Below, piece by piece: positions 2,640-15,085 of a stretch of DNA of 64,000 nt. The stretch is taken from positions 2,079-66,078 of the forward strand of contig CAZUBK010000001.1 of the NCBI GenBank assembly GCA_964618725.1, given 5' to 3'. Position 1 is the first letter of the stretch; each line of letters begins with the position of its first letter. This DNA comes from an uncultured Pseudomonadales bacterium (GTDB taxonomy: Bacteria > Patescibacteriota > Microgenomatia > UBA1400 > Chazhemtobacteraceae). The notes under the pieces are model-generated. The model searched no databases. It was not told the origin of the DNA and saw only the letters and a program-made list of their open reading frames with translations. The position numbers and the translations under genes were made by a program.

Positions 2640-3200
2640 TCATTCCTTTTGTATCCAAAGGAGGTACTCGATGTTGCCGGCTTTGCTGCCGGTGATAGGT
2701 GATTTGGTGTGGCTTTTTACTTTGAGGCCAAGCTTTTCAATATCAACAATCGTTTGTTTGAGGGTCTCTTCTGCCTTTTGATCGGTTAATTTGCCTTTAG
2801 TTAGCTTGTGATGACGAGAGGTGGCTTCGTAATGAGGTTTGACGAGGGAGACGATATGACCGCTCGCTTTTAGGTTGTTAATGGCGTTTGGAAGTATTTT
2901 TACTTGAGGTGTCCAACTAACATCAATGGAAATGAAATCGACTTTTTTCGGCAAGGCAACATGCATAGCATTGGTCCGTTCCATGACGATGACGCGAGGG
3001 TCGTTTCTTAATCGCCAATCTAGGACACCGTAACCTGTCTCAATCGAGTAGACCTTAGTGACACCTCTTTGGAGAAGGACATCAACAAAGCCACCAACGT
3101 TGCTACCAAAGTCAGCACAGGTGAGTCCTGTCACATCGACATTAAAGGTGTTTAGGGCGTGAATTAGTTTTTCTCCGGCACGCGAGACATATTTTTCCAT
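2640..3200 (-). CDS. tlyA: TlyA/FtsJ-like rRNA 2'-O-methyltransferase (hemolysin A family, no S4 domain)
   Basis: Motifs LTCADFGSNVGGFVDVLLQRGVTKVYSIETGYGVL (SAM-binding G-x-G) and KVDFISIDVSW match the TlyA family. Confidence 0.7.
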   Translation of the reverse strand: MEKYVSRAGEKLIHALNTFNVDVTGLTCADFGSNVGGFVDVLLQRGVTKVYSIETGYGVLDWRLRNDPRVIVMERTNAMHVALPKKVDFISIDVSWTPQVKILPNAINNLKASGHIVSLVKPHYEATSRHHKLTKGKLTDQKAEETLKQTIVDIEKLGLKVKSHTKSPITGSKAGNIEYLLWIQKE

Positions 3201-3229: not shown

Positions 3230-3260
3230 AAAAAACCACCACGAAGGTGGTGGTTTAAAA
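3230..3260 (-). terminator. Rho-independent terminator after the 438-aa ligase-like gene
   Basis: Perfect hairpin CCACCAC-GAAG-GTGGTGG at 3236-3253. It is flanked by an A6 run (a T6 run on the minus strand). Confidence 0.6.
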
Positions 3261-3267
3261 TCTGAAG

Positions 3268-4584
3268 TCAATCAAGATAGTTGGTAACTAACCGTTTAAA
3301 CAGTTTGTATTTTTTGTTGTACGAAGCGTTTTCCGGTAATCCGCAGGGAAAACGAAGAAAGAGAGCGAGAATGATAGTTTTACGACGTTCTCCTTTAGCC
3401 TCCTTGGCAGCCTTAAGTTCTTCGAGGAAATCAACCATGGCTTGGTGGAAGATGTTTTGGGCTTGGATGGAATAGCGCCAGCACATGTCACGGGCAAAGG
3501 CGACGACGTTGGGATAGTAGCGGTCTCGCACCATTAAGGGGCGATCGATTATTTCCCAACTTGACTTCTGTCTAGCCCAACGTCCCCAATTATTTGGTGT
3601 AGTTGGGAGAGCAACTTCGACCCGATTGACTAATCTTGCGACGCTTTTTTTCCCTGGTATACCTGAAGCGAGATCAGGCAACTCCATAGTGATACATGCC
3701 TCTTCCCATTCTTTGAGAAGCTGTTTAAAGGTGTCAGCAAGTGCTTTTTGATCGGAGGTAAGAATATATGCTCGATCCTGAAGAAGTAGTGCGTTGATGG
3801 CGGCATATAGTGATTCAAGAAAGAACATCTGAGTAACAAAACCGCTAACTGTTTGGATGGTATTATCTTTGTTCTCTTTGTAGATAGAATTGTCTTCGTC
3901 GGAAGTTTTGTTGTGAAGAGACGAGGAATATAGGGTAATAATTTCCTTGTATTCGGGTGATGAAGTTGTTGACAGATTTCGTGATGTATAAGAGGTGGCT
4001 TTACTTATCAGAGCGAGAATTTGGAAGTAGCGGGAAGGGTTTTTGAAGGGTGCTCCTGTATTGGTATGAAGGCCTAAGAAGGCACAGTTATCGAGATCAA
4101 TAAGGCCGGCTTGCAGGAAACGAAGGAAGATATATACACCGGTTTTGTAGGACCAAAACGGTCCGGGAGAGATCTCCCAAAAGTTAGTCATATTGCCAAG
4201 ACCGAGGCGTATGCCGATGGCATCAAGAAAGATGAGATCCTCTGAAATCAGCTCTTGTTTGGGGAGAGGAAACTCTGTCTCATAACCAAGAGTGGCTAAT
4301 AAATGACGAATGGGAAGATTCTTGGTTTCTCTATGATTAAGACGGGTGCGAGTTCTTTCGGTATGGAGCTTACTTATGCCGTCTGAGTTAAGTTGTTGAG
4401 AAAGAGTTTGGATGTTTTCGTGGCCATAGGTGCGGCGAATGTAGGTCAGATACTTCATCTGTTGATCAAAAGAGCTAGTGGTATATTTTGTCCGACTGTT
4501 GGGTGAAAGTAGCTTAAGAAGTGTTTGATTGACTGCGTGTTGCTCTGCTTGGCCAATTTGACGATGTTCAAGGTAGCGGTCCAT
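3268..4584 (-). CDS. Carboxylate-amine-ligase-like protein (putative GS/GCS2/PafA-fold amidoligase). This is a 5'-truncated tandem paralog of 4839..6803.
   Basis: 438 aa. It shares the conserved blocks LATLGYETEF, SPGPFWSYKT, FLRFLQAGLIDL and Y-K-E-N-K with the upstream 654-aa paralog, and ends the same way (KYKLFKRLVTNYLD). Homology continues in-frame and stop-free for about 89 codons upstream of the annotated ATG (to 4851) with no start codon. Confidence 0.5.
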   Translation of the reverse strand: MDRYLEHRQIGQAEQHAVNQTLLKLLSPNSRTKYTTSSFDQQMKYLTYIRRTYGHENIQTLSQQLNSDGISKLHTERTRTRLNHRETKNLPIRHLLATLGYETEFPLPKQELISEDLIFLDAIGIRLGLGNMTNFWEISPGPFWSYKTGVYIFLRFLQAGLIDLDNCAFLGLHTNTGAPFKNPSRYFQILALISKATSYTSRNLSTTSSPEYKEIITLYSSSLHNKTSDEDNSIYKENKDNTIQTVSGFVTQMFFLESLYAAINALLLQDRAYILTSDQKALADTFKQLLKEWEEACITMELPDLASGIPGKKSVARLVNRVEVALPTTPNNWGRWARQKSSWEIIDRPLMVRDRYYPNVVAFARDMCWRYSIQAQNIFHQAMVDFLEELKAAKEAKGERRKTIILALFLRFPCGLPENASYNKKYKLFKRLVTNYLD

Positions 4585-4838
4585 TAATGAAAGTCGGGTT
4601 GGCCAGTCCTTTGATGAATTTTGATATTCATTGAGGAGTTCCTGTAGGTATAGATTGGTGGCAATTGTGTCGAGTAATTTGAACCAGGCATTGAAACCGT
4701 CTGAAAAAAAGAGGGTGATGGTATGACCGGTTTGGGAAATAATACGACGTATAGTTGGATCGTTTAAATTTAGTTGAAACCCCGACCGTAAGGTCGTGGG
4801 TTGTTCATCAAAGCGGTTGTCAAGGGTCAGTTGCGAAC

Positions 4839-6803
4839 TTAATCTAAGTACTCAGCAACTAACTTTTTAAACAATTTGTACTTTTGGTTACTGGTAGCGT
4901 CTTCTTTTAGTCCACAAGGGAAATGAAGGAAAAGAGTATCTATTAAACACCGTCGTTGGTCTCCTTTTGCCTCTTTCGCTGATTTAAGTTCTTCAATGAA
5001 TTCTCGCATTGCTTTATCCATGGCTTTGCGAACACGGCTAGCGTAACGCCAGCAGATACTTCTGCTGAAAGCAACAATATTGGGGTATTCGCAGCCTCGG
5101 ATGACAAGGGGTTGATCGACGATGTTCCAAGAAGATTGGTGTCTCACCCAGCGAGTCCATTGTCCAGTCGGGGTAGGTAGAGCGGTCTCAACTCGTTGAC
5201 CGAGTTTGACCATTGAAATTGATTTCGGTCTACTTTGAGTTAGATCAGGCAACTTCATATACCGACAGCCCTCTTCCCATTCTTGGAGGAAATCTTCAAA
5301 AATGATAGCCAGAGCTTTTTGGTCTGACGTGAGATCTTTACCGGCTTGTCTAAGCAGATACGCTTTGAGGGCGGCGTTAATGTTTTCGAGTAAAAGTTGA
5401 TAAGCGGTGAAACCGGTGACGGTTTGAAGAGTTTGTCCTTTGTTTTCGGTATAGGCGCCGAAGTCAGAAGTGCGGTGGTTGAGTTTGAAATACTGGAGGG
5501 ACGAAGAGTAGGCAGAAAGATTGTAGTGGGGGAGTTTGACTTCACTGGCGTATGAAACAGCCTTCCAGATGGATGCAAGAATGTACTCATTATCAGATAC
5601 TTCAGTACCAAGAAGGCCGACTCCGGTGTGGATTCCCTGTCGAGCGTAGGTGTAGATATCGATCAGTCCGGCTTGAAGGAAGCGCATGAAGATGAAATTA
5701 GCGGTTTTGGCTGAAAGAAAAGGCCCCGGGGATGATTCCCAGTGACCGGAACTGTCTCCACCGGTGCCTAGATGGAAGCCGATGGTTTCCAAAAAGATTA
5801 AGTCTTCAAAAGTTTGTGGATCTTGGCAAATAAATTCGATTTCATAGCCGAGTGTCACCTTGAGATGTTGAAGTGGATGGTTAGGTGATTCGAGTAAACC
5901 GAGTTTCGCTATTTTCCGTTTGGTATCAATGGGTTTGACTGATTGTTCATTAAGCAGATCTTGTTCAATTTGTCTGACTTTCTCGATGCCGGTTTGGCGT
6001 CTGATACTAGCTAGCAATTTCATTCGTTTGGGAAATGAGGCGGAGGTAATCAGGGCTTGATTGGCGGGTGACAAACGATCAATCAGAGTCTTATCGACAA
6101 GACGGGTCTCGACTTGGCCGAGCTTGCGATACTGAAAATATTCCTCCATCAGACTTAATCGAGTAGGCCAGTCTTTTGATGATTTTTGATATCGGTTGAT
6201 GAGTTCTTTTAGAAATGAGTCAGAGGCGATCTTTCGGGCGAGATTTAGCCAGGCGTGGTAGCCAGTTGTAAGATAGAGAACTCCCATACTTCTTCCGGTT
6301 AAAGAGAGAGCTTCTCGAAGATCGGGTTGTTGAATGATGGCTATGAATTGATCAAGATACATTTCGTTCTCGTGGATGTATTGGATGACATCATAGAGAT
6401 CAGCAGGTTCATAGTAGCCTTTAAGGATATCAACTAGCTGAAGGTGAGCCCAGATTTTGTCGGTGATGCGTAGGGGTGGATCTTCGTAGAGTGAGTAGTA
6501 GCCGGTGGAAATATTTAATAGGGATCTTAGGACATCAAGGCATCTTTCACCCCTGAAGAAATGGGGGAAATTTTCAGCTTTGACAAATTGGCCAAGTCTG
6601 AGAAGTTGACGTCGTGATTGACGGGCGTCGGAAAGAAATGCAAGTAAGTCTTGCCCGAAGGATTTTTCGGCGATCTCAGTGAGGGTATCTTTGATTGCTT
6701 CACGATCTTTTTCTGCCAAACGACCGTCACGTCTGTAATAATCGTTGGTTCGAAAGTATTTGTTAATATTTGAAAGAGCTTTATCGACGAGATCTTTTTC
6801 CAT
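4839..6803 (-). CDS. Large carboxylate-amine-ligase-like protein (putative amidoligase) with an extra 225-aa helical N-terminal domain
   Basis: 654 aa. The motif KVTLGYEIEF resembles the N-terminal strand of YbdK/GCS2 (TLGIELE) and PafA/Dop (MGIETEYG). Further conserved blocks are IGFHLGTGG, SPGPF and YTENKG. The RBS is AAGGAGAAAAA before the ATG at 6803. Confidence 0.5.
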   Translation of the reverse strand: MEKDLVDKALSNINKYFRTNDYYRRDGRLAEKDREAIKDTLTEIAEKSFGQDLLAFLSDARQSRRQLLRLGQFVKAENFPHFFRGERCLDVLRSLLNISTGYYSLYEDPPLRITDKIWAHLQLVDILKGYYEPADLYDVIQYIHENEMYLDQFIAIIQQPDLREALSLTGRSMGVLYLTTGYHAWLNLARKIASDSFLKELINRYQKSSKDWPTRLSLMEEYFQYRKLGQVETRLVDKTLIDRLSPANQALITSASFPKRMKLLASIRRQTGIEKVRQIEQDLLNEQSVKPIDTKRKIAKLGLLESPNHPLQHLKVTLGYEIEFICQDPQTFEDLIFLETIGFHLGTGGDSSGHWESSPGPFLSAKTANFIFMRFLQAGLIDIYTYARQGIHTGVGLLGTEVSDNEYILASIWKAVSYASEVKLPHYNLSAYSSSLQYFKLNHRTSDFGAYTENKGQTLQTVTGFTAYQLLLENINAALKAYLLRQAGKDLTSDQKALAIIFEDFLQEWEEGCRYMKLPDLTQSRPKSISMVKLGQRVETALPTPTGQWTRWVRHQSSWNIVDQPLVIRGCEYPNIVAFSRSICWRYASRVRKAMDKAMREFIEELKSAKEAKGDQRRCLIDTLFLHFPCGLKEDATSNQKYKLFKKLVAEYLD

Positions 6804-6861
6804 TTTTTCTCCTTAAGATAGAGAAAGGCCGCCTCAGTTGAGGCGGCCGGTGGAAGGAGAG

Positions 6862-6960
6862 TTACTCTCCCAGCGTTTCTTCGGGTTCGGCGGCTTCGTC
6901 CACTTGGGGATCTTCTGCCTCGAGCTCGTCGTCCATTTCCATTTCATCGGGGTTGAACAT
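6862..6960 (-). CDS. Unannotated 32-aa hyper-acidic peptide, MFNPDEMEMDDELEAEDPQVDEAAEPEETLGE, ending in C-terminal Gly-Glu. Candidate tag or substrate peptide for the adjacent ligases.
   Basis: I translated this by hand; it is not in the supplied ORF table. The RBS AAAGGAGAA sits 6 nt before the ATG at 6960. It carries 18 Asp/Glu in 32 residues and its codon GC (about 58%) is far above the window average. It is followed by the hairpin GGCCGCCTC-AGTTG-AGGCGGCC (6826-6847) and then the ligase gene. Confidence 0.45.
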   Translation of the reverse strand: MFNPDEMEMDDELEAEDPQVDEAAEPEETLGE

Positions 6961-7011
6961 TGCGGTTCTCCTTTGAGAAATTTAGCTCAGTAAATCTGAG
7001 CCTGTTTGTAT

Positions 7012-7039
7012 ATTCTAACTTAAATTCAATACTTGTCAA
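7012..7039 (-). promoter_or_regulatory. Consensus sigma70-type promoter (TTGACA-16 nt-TAGAAT) driving the acidic peptide ORF. Its -35 overlaps a divergent TTGTCA for pepF.
   Basis: Minus-strand TTGACA is at 7039-7034 and TAGAAT at 7017-7012. The 5' UTR contains the hairpin GCTCAG-ATTTA-CTGAGC (about 6985-7001). Confidence 0.4.
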
Positions 7040-7119
7040 TAGGTAAACTAGTAATGGTTATGAGATGTTTCTAATCGTTTTAGAACCTAGGTAGGTAGGG
7101 ATGCTATGATCGATTGTTA

Positions 7120-8844
7120 ATGGAGAAAGAGAAAAAAGTAATAATTGAGAAGGAACAACTATTATATAAATTGGATTGGGACTTGACCCGGTTTTATGAC
7201 TCAGCTGATGATCCTCGGATAGAGGAAGATACGACCATTTTAGAGCAAGTATGTATTGAGTTTGCTAATAAATATGGCGGAGTAGAGCTAGGCGACTCGA
7301 CTGTTTTACTGATAGTACTAAGTGATTACGCGAAGTTAAACGAGATTTTAGCGAAAAACAAGCCAAGGCGTTATTTGTCGGCCAGAGGTTGGTTGAACAT
7401 CTTTGATGATGAAGTCCGAGTGAGAGGTGAGGTGGTAGATCAAAGAATAACAAAAGCGAAGAGGGTGGCAGACAGTGTATTGTCTCCCTTGTTGCTTTGG
7501 GATGATGAACAAGTGAAAAAGACGTTGGATGATCCCTTACTGATGGATTATCATGCTTTTTTGCGAAGAAAACTAGAAAAAAGAAGTGAACAATTGTTGC
7601 CAGCGATAGAAGAACTTTTGGACGAACATAAAGGGGTGTTCCCTGAGCTTTTTAGGGATCTAGAGATCAGTCTTAGAGAAACGAAGAAGAAGGGAATAAA
7701 AGAGGTTGAACCGAATATGGTCTATGCTAACTTTGCACGAAGCGAGTATGTTAACAGAATTAGGGCACATGGGTTAGAGGATAAACTGAGAGGGAGAGAA
7801 AAGCCGTATAGCTTTCGGCTTAGCCAGTTTGAGATTACTGAGAACGAAGTAATGGAGATGAATCAGGTAATCACTGCTGCGTACCCTTTGGCACACCGAT
7901 TTTATCGTCTCCATGCTCAATTATTGGGTAAAGAAAAGATTAAACCGGGTCAACGGATGACAAGTGTGGGTAAGATTGAGCTGGATCTGAGTCCTAGGAA
8001 AGGGGTGGAGATGATAAAGGAAGTATTTGCCCAGGTAGGAAGGAGGGATTTTGTGGATGGAATGTTTGCCAACGGACAGATAGACTTTTTGCCTTCAGAG
8101 AGCAAGAGTCGGACGTGTTTTGCTAGCTTGGGGCCGGACGAGTTTAGTTTCGTTTTGGGAAACTTCGGGTCAAATCTGGGGTCATTGATAACGGTGGTTC
8201 ATGAGCTAGGTCACGCACTAGATGCCAGTCTTTTCTATCAGCACCCTAATCCGTTGTATCGAAGTCATTTGGTGACGATGTCCGAGTTCCCCAGCAAGTT
8301 GATGGAATTGGTGGCTGAAGATGTAATCAGGCAACATTTAACCCCAGCAGAAGAGATAATTTTTTTAGAAAATCGATTGAACAGCACATTCAACTCAGTA
8401 TTCTTTATCACTGCAATGTTTAACTTTGAAGTTCAATTGCACCAAATGGTGCGGGAAGGTGAGTACCCTTCGGTGGAGAGAATTGCTCAGTTATGGCTTT
8501 CTCAGATGAAGGCTTATATGGGAGACGTTTTTGAGTTCTCTGAGAAAGATGGCTACAACTGGGTGAGTATCCCCCATCTTAGAGCATTTTTTTGTTCACA
8601 TTGTTATATTTTCGGTGATATCTTGGCCCGCAATATGTATAAGAGATATAAGGAGGATTTTCGCTTTTGGAGTCAGATTGAGCAGTTAATGAAGACAGGA
8701 ACAAGTAAACAGCCGAGAGAGTCGCTTAAGAAGCTAGGCATTAATCTTGATATAGGCTACTGGGTAGAGAGTATCAATAGTTTGGGGGAAGAAGTGGACC
8801 GACTAGAAACATTGTGTAGGCAACGAGGATTGTTGAAAAGATGA
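7120..8844 (+). CDS. pepF: M3-family oligoendopeptidase F (PepF-like zinc metallopeptidase)
   Basis: HExxH zinc motif VVHELGHALDAS. Length (about 575 aa) and architecture fit M3B oligoendopeptidases. The table ORF begins at a TTG at 7114; the first ATG is at 7120. Confidence 0.65.
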   Translation: MEKEKKVIIEKEQLLYKLDWDLTRFYDSADDPRIEEDTTILEQVCIEFANKYGGVELGDSTVLLIVLSDYAKLNEILAKNKPRRYLSARGWLNIFDDEVRVRGEVVDQRITKAKRVADSVLSPLLLWDDEQVKKTLDDPLLMDYHAFLRRKLEKRSEQLLPAIEELLDEHKGVFPELFRDLEISLRETKKKGIKEVEPNMVYANFARSEYVNRIRAHGLEDKLRGREKPYSFRLSQFEITENEVMEMNQVITAAYPLAHRFYRLHAQLLGKEKIKPGQRMTSVGKIELDLSPRKGVEMIKEVFAQVGRRDFVDGMFANGQIDFLPSESKSRTCFASLGPDEFSFVLGNFGSNLGSLITVVHELGHALDASLFYQHPNPLYRSHLVTMSEFPSKLMELVAEDVIRQHLTPAEEIIFLENRLNSTFNSVFFITAMFNFEVQLHQMVREGEYPSVERIAQLWLSQMKAYMGDVFEFSEKDGYNWVSIPHLRAFFCSHCYIFGDILARNMYKRYKEDFRFWSQIEQLMKTGTSKQPRESLKKLGINLDIGYWVESINSLGEEVDRLETLCRQRGLLKR

Positions 8845-9193: not shown

Positions 9194-10753
9194 GTGGGTA
9201 ATATAGAGCGTGAGAACAGGTTTGAATTGGAGAAGGTATTTCAAAAGCTGAAGTTGTGGGGAATCGAGGAAGTAGGATTCCTGAGAGAGAATGGGGAACT
9301 TGATTTGGAAGAATACTGCAAATACTTGGGAGGCTTCAGAAATAATGAATACTTGGGAGAACTTTCTTTGGTGGGTCTATCCAAATTAGACTTGGAGGGT
9401 GTCAAGGTAGGCGTCTTTTCTGCTCCGATGGGATTCGGTCACCATCGCCTAAGTCGCTACTACGAGATTTTTCTAAAGACTTTGGGAGTGGCGGTGGAGC
9501 ATATTGATTTGGGTAATAGTGGAGAGAACTTGAGGGTGATGAAGTTTTTTTCTTCTTTGAAGACAGCTTATGTCAATGGGAGCAATAAAACGGCGGTGGA
9601 GACGGGACTCAGTCAATATGCAGAATGGCTTTCGTATGACAGGCATACTTGGTTTACCAAAGCACTAAGAATCTGGGAAGAGCATTGTCCGGAGCATTTT
9701 TACAACACATTTATGGGGAAGCCAGGTAAACATTTGACACCGGCTAATACAAGAAGAACCTTTGGAGTGTTAAACACTTTGTTTGGCAAGGAGCTACGGA
9801 GATATCTAAAACAAAGAGGGATTACTCATAAATTAGTGTTGTATCCAATGGTCAATGCACTAGTTGGTAAGAAAAATACGATTTTGATAGGAACAGATTC
9901 GGTACTTGAGCCAGCGGGTTGGATTCCTGATCCGCTACTGGTGGTAGAGACAGATTACGCAAAAAACAGATTGGTGAAAGCCTGGAGGGGGAAGATGGGG
10001 CAGAATATTCATGTATCAAAGGGGTTTCCCGCTCCGGTGGGAGCTTTGATCCGAAGGAGCGAATTGACAAAAAAAAGAGCGGAAGCGATACCTTTGGGGG
10101 AACCACAAATTCTTTTTTTGCCAGCAAGCGGAGTGGCAACAGCCCAGTTGAAATCCTTTACAGATATATTAGTGGAAGTGGCACCTTTGTTGGATCAGGG
10201 AAAACTTAAAGTAGTGGTGCAAGCCGGAGCTGAAGGATTGGGTAAAAAAGTTCATGACTCTTTGTCGACTCTGGTTGAACAACTCTCGAGTGAATATCCG
10301 GGATTGATGAAAAACGTTGTAATTCATCATGGTCAGACTGTGAGAGCGGCGTTGGATCTTTTTGAAGTAGTGGCAGCCTCAGGTAAACCGATGTCTATAG
10401 CAGTGAAAGGAAGTGAGATGGCTCGAATTGCGGTACAGTTGGGGATTCCTCACATTGTGACGGGAACAATAGGGGAACACGAGAAATGGAATGTAATTGT
10501 TTCTGCCTTACAGGGGGCGGCGGTCATTGTACTGCCAACAGCATTTGATGAGTGTTGGCGATTGGTAGAGTCTAGTGATTTTCCGGAAAATTTAAGGTGG
10601 CCAGCCTGGTTTGCGCTGGAACGAGTGTATTGTCACACGATGACGGACGCATTGATTAGGTCGGAAGAGGTGATCAGGAAAGGCAGGTTGGTTGAGACAA
10701 ATGGGCAGATGATGGTGGAAACGATTGAGATGTTGGTACGAAAAGGCCACTAG
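9194..10753 (+). CDS. GT-B fold glycosyltransferase (MGDG-synthase/UgtP/MurG-like, GT28-type C-terminal domain)
   Basis: The N-terminal G-x-G-H motif (SAPMGFGHHRLS) matches MGDG synthase. The C-terminal block GSEMARIAVQLGIPHIVTGTIGEHEKWNVIVSALQGAAVIV matches the Glyco_tran_28_C pattern. The start is a GTG and is uncertain. Confidence 0.45.
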   Translation: MGNIERENRFELEKVFQKLKLWGIEEVGFLRENGELDLEEYCKYLGGFRNNEYLGELSLVGLSKLDLEGVKVGVFSAPMGFGHHRLSRYYEIFLKTLGVAVEHIDLGNSGENLRVMKFFSSLKTAYVNGSNKTAVETGLSQYAEWLSYDRHTWFTKALRIWEEHCPEHFYNTFMGKPGKHLTPANTRRTFGVLNTLFGKELRRYLKQRGITHKLVLYPMVNALVGKKNTILIGTDSVLEPAGWIPDPLLVVETDYAKNRLVKAWRGKMGQNIHVSKGFPAPVGALIRRSELTKKRAEAIPLGEPQILFLPASGVATAQLKSFTDILVEVAPLLDQGKLKVVVQAGAEGLGKKVHDSLSTLVEQLSSEYPGLMKNVVIHHGQTVRAALDLFEVVAASGKPMSIAVKGSEMARIAVQLGIPHIVTGTIGEHEKWNVIVSALQGAAVIVLPTAFDECWRLVESSDFPENLRWPAWFALERVYCHTMTDALIRSEEVIRKGRLVETNGQMMVETIEMLVRKGH

Positions 10754-13293: not shown

Positions 13294-13576
13294 GATAGGC
13301 TCCTTTATTTGCGAATCAATGTGCTGGTATCGGTATTAAAGCATGCTTGTCGAGCAAGGGAAAGGGAGGCTAAAAATTGGATACAAGCTTGTAGTATAAG
13401 ATCCTATATGTTCAGGTATTGTTCAGTAGTAATAATTTACTGCTGTATGGGCTATAACTTGACTTATCGTTTTAGAACAAGTTTTCACGGTTCTGTTGAC
13501 TTATCTTGTAATGTAGAGTCAGTAGCAATCCTTGAATTGCTCTGCTAAGATGGTCATGAATTTGAAAAAGTGCGCT

Positions 13577-15085
13577 ATGAAGAACAAAGTCTTGAGTTTG
13601 GTATGCCTATTTTTACTTTTTTTGATGACACCCGCTAGGGTAATGGCGATCGTGGATCCATTAGCGAGAGAGAATAACAAAGTTGGAGTTCATGTCTTGT
13701 CTCCTGATGAGATAGAAACGGCGTCCAAGCTAGTCAATGGTGAGAAGGGTAGCTTTGGCTATGTAGTGGTGCCAATTCAAGCAACTGATCGAGATCGTGT
13801 CAAGTGGAGCAAGTTTATGAGGAAAGCGACAGAGCTAAAAGTGATTCCAATTGTCAGGGTGGCGACTTATGTCGATGAGGTGAACTGGGAAGAACCAAAT
13901 AATTTTGATCTGATTGATTTTGCTAATTTTTTAAACGACCTGCCTTGGCCAACAGCAAACCGATACGTAATCATTTTTAATGAGGTGAATCGGGCAGATG
14001 AGTATGGTGGTTATGTTTCGCCAAGTAGATACGCTGATATCTTGGTGAATGCGGTAAGAATCTTTAAGGAGAGAAATGAGGACTTTTTTGTTTTACCGGC
14101 AGGACTGGATAATGCGGCAAGAACATCTGCGAACGCGATGAAGTGGAACGACTATTTAACGGCAATGTGGCGACATCAGCCTAGTGTTTTTTCTTTGATC
14201 GATGGGTGGGTAAGCCACTCATATCCAAATTATGGTTTTATCGGAAAGGCAACAGATGGGCATGATCACTCGATCAGGGGATATCTGTCCGAGCTTAGTT
14301 TGATTGCTAAGTTTAGTGAGAAGAAGCTCCCAGTATTCATTACCGAAACTGGTTGGGATATGGAGAAGTTGAGTGAGAGAAAAGTAGCCGAGAACTTTGA
14401 ATATGCATATACCAAGGTGTGGAATGATGGCCGGGTAACAATGGTGGCCCCATTTTTGCTGATGGCGGGAGAGGGACCATTTGTAAAGTTTTCTTTATTG
14501 AAAAAGGATGGGTCACCGAGTCTGGCGTACCGGACGATTCAACGAAGTGTCACAGTAGGGAGACCGGTTGAGGCAGAGTTAGACAAAGTGGCAGTAAAAG
14601 GGGTGAATACAAGTAGTAAGGGAAATAGCGCTCAATGGATGGGTGAGCCTAAAATCGATACTTCTTGGTTCAGTGCTTGGTGGCAGAGTCTGACCAGATG
14701 GGTTACAGGAATGAAGAAGCAGGATAAAGAGAAAAGGGAAGGAAGGGAGAAGGTAAGGATAGAACTGAAAGAGTACTGGGTGACTAGGGCCGTTGATAAT
14801 CAGAGTCGAAGTAGGGGGTTATCGGGAAAAAAGAGTTTGGCAGAAGACGAGGGGATGCTATTTGTATTTGAGTTGGCGGGTAAGTATGGCTTTTGGATGC
14901 CCGATATGCGTTTTGATATCGATATCGTTTGGATAAGAGGGGGGAGGGTGGTTGGAGTAAGTCGGGGTGATCATACAAAACCAAAAGAGATATCTTATCC
15001 CCCAGTAGATGTGGATTTAGTCTTGGAGGTGAATCCAAGATCGGAGATTCAAGTGGGAGATGAAGTGGTCTTAGGGGTAGAATGA
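13577..15085 (+). CDS. Secreted two-domain protein: N-terminal clan GH-A-like glycoside hydrolase domain fused to a C-terminal DUF192 domain
   Basis: Signal peptide MKNKVLSLVCLFLLFLMTPARVMA. The motifs NEVNRADEYGG and FITETGWD look like GH-A acid/base and nucleophile motifs. The C-terminal GMLFVFELAGKYGFWMPDMRFDIDIVWI matches DUF192 (COG1430). The table ORF begins upstream at a TTG (13532). Confidence 0.45.
   Translation: MKNKVLSLVCLFLLFLMTPARVMAIVDPLARENNKVGVHVLSPDEIETASKLVNGEKGSFGYVVVPIQATDRDRVKWSKFMRKATELKVIPIVRVATYVDEVNWEEPNNFDLIDFANFLNDLPWPTANRYVIIFNEVNRADEYGGYVSPSRYADILVNAVRIFKERNEDFFVLPAGLDNAARTSANAMKWNDYLTAMWRHQPSVFSLIDGWVSHSYPNYGFIGKATDGHDHSIRGYLSELSLIAKFSEKKLPVFITETGWDMEKLSERKVAENFEYAYTKVWNDGRVTMVAPFLLMAGEGPFVKFSLLKKDGSPSLAYRTIQRSVTVGRPVEAELDKVAVKGVNTSSKGNSAQWMGEPKIDTSWFSAWWQSLTRWVTGMKKQDKEKREGREKVRIELKEYWVTRAVDNQSRSRGLSGKKSLAEDEGMLFVFELAGKYGFWMPDMRFDIDIVWIRGGRVVGVSRGDHTKPKEISYPPVDVDLVLEVNPRSEIQVGDEVVLGVE

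Follow-up and report, generated by a model that had tools for sequence, protein, structure and literature searches.

A short acidic-peptide gene conserved upstream of a new enzyme family with a predicted glutamine synthetase-type ligase fold

We analysed a 64,000-nucleotide stretch of contig CAZUBK010000001.1 (assembly GCA_964618725.1, labelled as an uncultured Pseudomonadales bacterium; hereafter the window), in which a gene for a strongly acidic 32-residue peptide lies directly upstream of two tandem genes for paralogous enzymes, termed here ligase paralogs A and B. The same pairing of peptide gene and enzyme gene recurs in related loci, about 20 of them metagenomic. The enzymes constitute a new family, unannotated in every library searched, whose active-site signature is clearly defined, and this holds even if the small open reading frame (ORF) should prove to be a leader peptide. 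We favour the reading that the peptide is the substrate or partner of a dedicated ATP-dependent carboxylate-amine ligase, and we give it about an even chance of being correct. The unit would then be a two-component system, consisting of an acidic, Glu-, Pro-, Val- and Ala-rich peptide and of one to three tandem enzyme copies, analogous to Pup-PafA or to the precursor-enzyme pairs of RiPPs (peptides made by ribosomes and modified post-translationally) and a member of neither group. The combination of such a peptide with this enzyme looks undescribed: in agreement with the original prediction, which had been made from the sequence of the window alone, we found no description of it in the literature, and the fold family was possibly noted in a 2009 survey of amidoligases.

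The peptide gene and its conservation

The unit is encoded on the minus strand of the window and comprises the following features.

7039..7012, minus: promoter of the peptide gene, TTGACA-16 nt-TAGAAT, matching 11 of 12 consensus positions
7001-6985, minus: stem-loop in the 5' untranslated region, GCTCAG ATTTA CTGAGC, located where the peptide mRNA is predicted to begin
6974-6966, minus: Shine-Dalgarno (SD) sequence of the peptide gene, AAAGGAGAA, 7 nt before the ATG
6862-6960, minus: peptide gene, an ORF of 32 aa read from the sequence, MFNPDEMEMDDELEAEDPQVDEAAEPEETLGE
6817..6848, minus: terminator-like hairpin between the peptide gene and ligase A, GGCCGCCTC AACT GAGGCGGCC followed by a T-rich tail
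4839-6803, minus: ligase paralog A, 654 aa, with TLGYEIEF
5394..5906, minus: catalytic core of paralog A, residues 300-470, with GYEIE encoded at 5835-5849
4585-4838, minus: spacer between the paralogs, holding an N-terminal-domain remnant in the frame of B
3268-4584, minus: ligase paralog B, 438 aa, with TLGYETEF, EISPGPF, HTN and YKENK, its catalytic motifs all intact
3233..3256, minus: terminator-like hairpin closing the unit 3' of paralog B, a 10-pair stem followed by TTTGTATCAG

Fifteen of the 32 residues of the peptide are Asp or Glu, giving a net charge of -15, and in a six-frame scan of the window no other small ORF reached an Asp plus Glu content of at least 35%. The promoter at 7039..7012 was by far the best match between positions 3000 and 9300, an interval in which the number of promoter-like sites (nine) equalled the chance expectation. 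The stem of the hairpin behind the peptide gene (6848-6827) has 9 pairs, of which 8 are G-C, and is followed by TTTCTCT; the fold of this transcript segment was better than those of all 200 shuffled versions (z = -3.6). All the parts that had been listed for the unit from the sequence alone, namely the 32-aa ORF, its SD sequence, promoter and 5' hairpin, the GC-rich downstream hairpin and the two paralogs, were found in place, and the GC content given for the peptide ORF needed correction, from about 58% against a window average of about 42% to a measured 54.5% against 43.1%. The ORF had already been called by public gene callers, and such ORFs stand in public assemblies without any name. A predicted fold of 6809-6826 (minus strand) allows base pairing between the T-rich terminator tail, UUUCUCU, and the SD region in front of ligase A, GGAGAAA, a pairing that could couple terminator read-through to translation initiation of ligase A.

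Related loci were collected by exact-protein look-ups and with a fixed-spacing degenerate DNA pattern of the invariant enzyme core, the matches being verified by hmmsearch, which exposed one of six genome matches and 6 of 15 metagenome matches as false. A pattern derived from the alignment (A5) gave 24 matches in reference genome contigs, with no relative among them. The resulting set holds 22 loci, the window's own Logan copy (L001) included, and 17 of them were examined in detail. Wherever upstream sequence was available, a small ORF on the same strand, with a GGAGG-type SD sequence, stood directly upstream of the ligase gene, indicating that the small ORF is a real gene conserved with the ligase, as had been proposed. 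All homologous peptide ORFs are preceded by a GGAGG-type SD sequence, and the order strong SD sequence, small ORF, intrinsic terminator, ligase was observed in 16 of the 17 loci; recurring so often, the arrangement is not due to chance. In 13/17 loci the peptide ATG is preceded, 31-56 nt upstream, by a sigma-70 promoter in which 10 or more of the 12 positions fit the consensus. The intrinsic terminator follows shortly after the peptide stop codon (16/17), with a stem of -14 to -23 kcal/mol and a U-tract, and in the 11 loci with a properly delimited stem this stem starts 7-20 nt after the stop. Fourteen loci have a downstream ligase ORF that is complete, and in these the ligase ATG comes 34-103 nt behind the peptide stop, a distance too short to accommodate a separate ligase promoter.

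The number of enzyme genes varies among the loci. Two copies are present in the window and three full-length copies follow one peptide gene in locus L006, whereas locus L005 has the order paralog, peptide, paralog and locus L007 carries two peptide-plus-ligase units; the catalytic motifs are kept in all tandem copies.

The peptides were assigned to two classes. Six peptides of 29-35 aa, that of the window included, align end to end and form the short class; the other five members are as follows.

L010/L025: MTILAPGDEAEVEIEEEEPLEPEDAEPPEPPD
L027: MKMGPSDGAEVEELEEELVEPIEAETPEPPDD
L015: MKIGPSAGPVADEDVDDLVVDEEEPLPAPAPEPPD
L006: MAHNPGDEPKVDLEEEVPTTASQPEPPDA
L013: MTDPSAPAVDVEEEEKLLEPVTADQPEGPD

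Peptides of the long class (51-70 aa) have only a C-proximal element in common and end, for example, in ...ATAARPEPHN, ...AFQPEPSTAMLE, ...PAARPEPGMSLP or ...TTERPEPR. What the peptides conserve is an A-x-P-E-P motif, internal and C-proximal, which in the window peptide takes the form A-E-P-E-E; this short-class peptide also shows an N-terminal x-P-[GSD] element and ends in ...PEETLGE. PE[PG] occurred within the last 16 residues of 10 of the 17 peptides; among 540 small ORFs taken as controls from these loci, 10 had it there (binomial p = 8e-14). Across the set, the peptides contain 14% Glu, 12% Pro, 11% Val and 11% Ala and essentially no Cys, a composition from which they are probably disordered, and their net charge ranges from -4 to -15, with the basic L008 peptide as the one exception.

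The C-terminal -LGE of the window peptide, which had been likened to the end of Pup, is not conserved: the 17 peptides end in E, D, D, D, A, D, N, E, R, S, G, A, P, M, I, R and Y. Of the six short-class peptides, five have Asp or Glu at the end, the window peptide among them, and the L006 peptide ends in D-A. When related genomes were searched for an acidic peptide ending in -G-E beside the ligase, as had been suggested, the peptide ORF was found to be conserved and its ending was not. The ORF, its SD sequence, the motif and the position are nevertheless maintained between loci whose ligases are about 20% identical, and this makes the case for a translated, functional gene.

A stem-loop at the 5' end of the predicted mRNA was also seen for the short-class peptides of L015, L027, L006 and the window (GCTGTAAA..TTTACAG, GCAGTA..TACTG and GGCTCAG..CTGAGC), and could represent a conserved mRNA-stabilising or regulatory element.

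The enzyme family and its predicted fold

An exhaustive HMMER search with a profile of the two paralogs against 1.84 billion cluster representatives (50% identity) defined a rare family, with 78 proteins at E <= 1e-3, of which 40 reached E <= 1e-10, and with lengths mostly of 650-720 aa, whereas word-indexed homologue searches, with a single sequence or with a profile, returned the query alone. None of the 78 proteins is a natural fusion of peptide and ligase. Paralogs A and B had no match in Pfam, NCBIfam, PADLOC or PHROGs, and sequence and profile searches of the PDB gave none either; the 55 aligned family members had zero Pfam matches, and nine isolated cores had none even at E <= 10. Sequence-level membership in Pup_ligase (PF03136), GCS2 (PF04107), Amidoligase_2 (PF12224) or Gln-synt_C (PF00120) was rejected, with no profile match at any threshold tried.

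Six columns are invariant in the 55 sequences (G319, E321, E323, E356, H392 and N575, in the numbering of paralog A), and E453 (53/55), K455 (54/55) and N394 (50/55) are nearly so, together with E305, P310 and the segment S/A358-P359-G360-P361-F362. AlphaFold2 produced confident models for paralog A (pLDDT 85.5, above 90 in the core; pTM 0.81) and paralog B (pLDDT 89.0, pTM 0.90). The ten best Foldseek matches in the PDB all had the glutamine synthetase (GS) fold, with the following fold-match scores.

10.4: YbdK/GCS2 (1tt4)
10.3: plant glutamate-cysteine ligase (GCL; 2gwc)
10.0: Dop (9cku)
9.5: PafA-Pup (4bjr)
8.7: yeast GCL
8.5-7.0: glutamine synthetases

The catalytic core is predicted to be a curved antiparallel beta-sheet, and it superposes on solved members of the GS/GCL/PafA superfamily. 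The metal and phosphate ligands of GS come in the order G-x-E-x-E, E, H-x-H, E-x-R. In the model of paralog A, the conserved residues are carried by core strands 318-325, 354-357, 389-395, 440-446 and 449-459, and E321, E323, E356, H392, E453 and K455 lie on these strands in the order expected for GS, with Lys in place of Arg. When mapped from the known GS active site, the conserved residues would correspond to its metal and phosphate ligands, and both paralogs are predicted to have the ATP-dependent carboxylate-amine ligase fold of GS, GCL and PafA/Dop. The suggestion that TLGYE[IT]E forms the first core strand of a carboxylate-amine ligase thus held at the level of the fold, including its two invariant Glu residues, and did not hold at the level of sequence families; comparison of the two whole proteins had the same divided outcome, with a structural match to the GS/GCL/PafA fold and zero profile matches. 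Each full-length enzyme has extra all-helical domains, of about 300 aa at the N-terminus and about 190 aa at the C-terminus.

Paralog A consists of a helical N-terminal domain (residues 1-300), the GS-fold core (about 300-470) and a helical C-terminal domain that contains the invariant N575 and HFPCG, a version of an RFPCG-type motif. The paralogy with B, seen beforehand in the shared TLGYE[IT]EF block, was confirmed by 46% identity over 445 residues (E = 1e-129). Judged by sequence, paralog B is a partial tandem duplicate: the translated spacer at 4585-4838 aligns to residues 157-218 of A, with KDWPTRLSLM identical, and residues 157-654 of A match 4767..3271 in one contiguous tblastn alignment. 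The frame of B is open upstream of its ATG as far as the stop codon of A, with no ATG, GTG or TTG in that stretch.

Two further observations concern the paralogs. An out-of-frame ORF of 35 aa (4584-4691) ends in TAATG, overlapping the start of B. Residue 394 of paralog A (5622-5624) is Gly, whereas 50 of the 55 family members have Asn at this position (H-x-N) and B keeps the Asn, a difference that may reflect functional divergence of the two copies.

Substrate, leader, tag or inhibitor

If the ligase does have the peptide as its substrate or partner, as we favour, the peptide would be produced in large excess over the enzyme, whose expression would depend on terminator read-through; strong terminators that set a high ratio of peptide to enzyme are known from many RiPP operons. 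The peptide would dock on the ligase through the A-x-P-E-P motif, as Pup docks on PafA, and ATP and Mg2+ would be used to turn a peptide carboxylate into an acyl-phosphate. The activated carboxylate might be that of the motif Glu or, in the short class to which the window peptide belongs, that of the C-terminal Asp or Glu, and it would then be joined to an amine, either on a small molecule or amino acid, so that the peptide is modified or serves as a carrier, or on a protein lysine, which would amount to tagging. Extra paralogs could perform further modifications or could act as a reverse amidase, related to the ligase as Dop is to PafA.

Several results weigh against this reading. The family has no sequence-level membership in any ligase family, and K455 stands where Arg is usual. 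The C-terminal residue of the peptide is so variable that no single reactive carboxylate is conserved family-wide; the motif Glu is not universal either, being replaced by Ala in L002, by Lys in L007b and by Arg in L011, and the L008 peptide is basic. The dN/dS ratio of these ORFs of about 30 codons was near 1 in closely related pairs and 0.4-0.5 in distant ones, where dS is saturated, and was uninformative, so that selection at the protein level is shown only by the conservation of the ORF and of the motif. The neighbourhood has no conserved gene for a transporter, a protease, a target protein or an enzyme of a downstream pathway. Finally, the same gene layout would be expected of a leader-peptide regulator.

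Such a cis-acting leader peptide is rather unlikely in our estimate, yet it accounts for much of the layout. The progress of the ribosome through Glu, Asp and Pro codons, or a pause at PEP or PPD shortly before the stop codon, would govern terminator formation and with it enzyme expression; the peptide itself would have no function, and the regulated enzyme would be a GS-fold ligase acting on small molecules. The layout is that of a classical attenuator: a promoter and a short ORF, next a strong intrinsic terminator, and then an enzyme gene without room for its own promoter. The terminator stem begins 5-20 nt past the stop codon, a distance that a paused ribosome could span. The PPD at the end of short-class peptides is a known pause motif that depends on elongation factor EF-P, conservation is focused near the C-terminus, as in arrest peptides, and a dN/dS near 1 also fits this explanation. 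However, no antiterminator was detected: complementarity between the 5' arm of the terminator and the ORF, assessed as duplex energy relative to dinucleotide shuffles, was the same as for shuffled sequence (mean z = 0.11, n = 13), which argues against a classical attenuator. In addition, the peptides are 29-70 aa long, the short class also retains an N-terminal P-[GS]-D element and an acidic run, and the long class is without PP motifs and shows no enrichment of a single codon. The overall character of the peptide, rich in Glu, Pro, Val and Ala, without Cys and with a charge of -4 to -15, has been kept between ligases that share about 20% identity.

Pup-like tagging is a sub-case of the favoured peptide-ligase reading, and an unlikely one; the larger share of the chance given to that reading goes to peptide modification or a role as a carrier. 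The ligase would join the peptide, through its terminal or a near-terminal acidic residue, to lysines of target proteins, and the second paralog would be a de-ligase. Like Pup, the peptide is short and acidic and has a composition typical of disorder, and the acidic last residue of most short-class peptides, that of the window among them, would suit such a linkage; its gene has a strong predicted promoter of its own, and the ligase paralogs are paired and in L005 flank the peptide gene, recalling dop-pup. However, in addition to the missing Pup_ligase match, there was no match to Pup (PF05639), none of the peptides has a Gly-Gly-Glu/Gln ending and the C-terminus varies among long-class peptides. 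YbdK and GCL scored as high as PafA/Dop in the structural comparison, indicating that the fold match is not specific to PafA. Apart from ClpB in L006, no proteasome or Mpa/ARC-type unfoldase was found in the scanned part of the window (478-28039) or in the 21 related loci, and the catalytic motifs of the two window paralogs are identical, giving no sign of a split into ligase and amidase. Taken in its fullest form, this idea would imply that peptide tagging arose in prokaryotes a second time and independently, in ultra-small bacteria of Patescibacteria type that have no proteasomes. A GS-fold ligase would attach the strongly expressed, disordered acidic peptide covalently to proteins or other amines and tandem paralogs would serve as ligase and de-ligase, in parallel to Pup-PafA/Dop, with another recognition motif (A-x-P-E-P) and no relation in sequence; we regard this, too, as improbable.

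Least probable of all, and in our view very unlikely, is an inhibitor or antitoxin. The acidic peptide, made in excess, would be a pseudo-substrate inhibitor restraining a potentially harmful protein-modifying ligase, akin to type II toxin-antitoxin or conflict systems. In favour of this, the small acidic gene precedes the enzyme gene and is predicted to be the more strongly expressed, the family is rare, patchy and very divergent with no conserved neighbourhood, and the window contains a Gp49/HTH toxin-antitoxin pair at a distance of 1 kb. Against it, the family had no PADLOC or PHROG match and no plasmid, phage or viral-contig copy, it would be unusual for one antitoxin to serve two or three tandem toxins of 650-700 aa each, and a strong terminator between antitoxin and toxin would be atypical.

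Neighbourhood, hosts and comparison with known systems

The gene divergent from the unit in the window is the following.

7114-8844, plus: PepF-type M3 oligoendopeptidase (PF01432, 4.6e-13; HELGH motif; TIGR02290, 218.7 bits, below the cutoff)

Its earlier identification as an M3 peptidase is confirmed by these matches. The claim that it is transcribed from a -35 box overlapping that of the peptide gene was not verified: no plus-strand promoter upstream of 7114 passed the scan and the near-palindrome TTGTCAA is the sole source of a -35-like hexamer on both strands. PepF adjoins the ligase in the window only and is absent from the 21 other loci; not being conserved beside the ligase, it was ruled out as a part of the module. 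In all-against-all clustering of neighbouring ORFs, the ligase family alone recurred across the 22 loci, plus secE-nusG housekeeping synteny in a few of them. Genes for LemA, an M48 peptidase and ClpB are located downstream of the unit in L006.

The surroundings of the unit in the window consist of housekeeping genes, for DNA and RNA functions (TlyA, RuvC, RuvA, RuvB and holA) and for central metabolism (phosphoglucomutase, PGI, PPDK, enolase, iPGM, an AMP-binding enzyme of acyl-CoA synthetase type and POR). At 1914-2518 on the minus strand, 1 kb from the ligase unit, a Gp49-like gene (PF05973) and an HTH_3/HTH_37 gene probably form a toxin-antitoxin pair of HigB/HigA type. The TlyA-type 2'-O-methyltransferase (2640-3200, minus) covers only model positions 53-228 of TIGR00478 and is without the usual N-terminal S4 RNA-binding domain. 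A 519-aa ORF between PepF and RuvC (9194-10753, plus) had a weak, sub-threshold match to DUF6938 as its sole match. A 517-aa protein with a C-terminal DUF192 domain is encoded at 13532-15085 (plus), and its homologue (L003 4050-5468) lies directly beside the ligase in L003, a contig of an NCBI metagenome-assembled genome (MAG; JBFOMT010000052.1) that carries the second-closest relative of the ligase.

The family was found mainly in metagenomes of groundwater-type small-genome bacteria. A mobile-element, phage or plasmid origin was rejected, since searches of viral contigs and of phage and plasmid records gave no family member. Among five relatives in reference collections, one is labelled Patescibacteria and four are from MAGs labelled Gammaproteobacteria or Pseudomonadales. 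One of the latter (L012, labelled 'uncultured Pseudomonadales') shares its gene order over more than 8 ORFs, the NusG-type region beside the ligase among them, with L027, a contig from the 0.1-µm fraction of Hainich groundwater, and this synteny makes the Gammaproteobacteria and Pseudomonadales labels of the four ligase-bearing MAGs doubtful. The hosts are probably Patescibacteria-like small-genome bacteria.

To our knowledge, few bacterial routes exist by which a ribosomal peptide is joined through an amide bond, namely Pup-PafA, the ATP-grasp RiPP ligases, LysW-LysX and the PEARLs. If the peptide described here is a substrate, the set of folds used for peptide and protein modification would be wider, and the pair would offer a tractable two-protein system; should it be a tag, a new analogue of ubiquitin or Pup would be added. 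The biology of the groundwater-type small-genome bacteria in whose metagenomes the family was mainly found is largely uncharted.

Compared with the LysW-LysX system, in which a small, very acidic protein ending in ...GE has its Glu amide-linked by an ATP-dependent ligase, the window peptide is similarly acidic and ends in ...PEETLGE. However, LysX is an ATP-grasp enzyme and LysW has a zinc ribbon, whereas the peptides of the present family are without Cys, their -GE ending is not conserved, and the pathway genes for LysZ, LysY, LysJ and LysK are absent.

YbdK/GCS2 and plant-type GCL act on free amino acids, and the order in which acidic and His residues follow one another along their core strands appears to be that of the new family. 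The family differs from YbdK/GCS2 in having no PF04107 match, a Lys for the Arg of the E-x-R strand, and SPGPF after the second metal-binding Glu; GCS2 enzymes are, moreover, about 370-450 aa long and without a dedicated peptide gene, whereas a peptide gene is present here.

In RiPP precursor-ligase pairs, as in these loci, a highly expressed small gene (by prediction here) is followed by a terminator and then by enzymes that form amides or esters with ATP (here by fold), enzyme paralogs occur in tandem, and a conserved motif, in these loci a putative recognition motif, lies inside an otherwise fast-evolving peptide. The peptide gene is adjacent to the enzyme gene, and the enzyme may recognise the conserved peptide motif. 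Graspetide clusters, which encode ATP-grasp RiPP enzymes, have been reported in candidate phyla radiation bacteria (PMC8939145). The present enzymes, by contrast, have a GS-like rather than an ATP-grasp fold, the peptides have almost none of the Lys, Ser, Thr or Cys patterns used for macrocyclisation, and the loci hold no conserved protease, transporter or immunity gene; a leader peptidase or exporter was likewise not conserved in them, with PepF found only in the window and the M48 peptidase only in L006.

The Pup-PafA/Dop system of Actinobacteria also combines a short, acidic, probably disordered peptide with genetically linked enzymes that occur as paralog pairs. Here, however, the peptide is unrelated to Pup and has an internal A-x-P-E-P instead of a GG[EQ] ending, and the enzymes have extra helical domains and no Pup_ligase match, were found with no proteasome or Mpa partner, and appear to belong to Patescibacteria-like hosts. 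Overall, Pup-PafA/Dop is the closest functional analogue of the unit, YbdK/GCS2 and plant GCL are the best structural matches of the enzymes, and the architecture of the locus resembles that of a RiPP precursor and its ligase.

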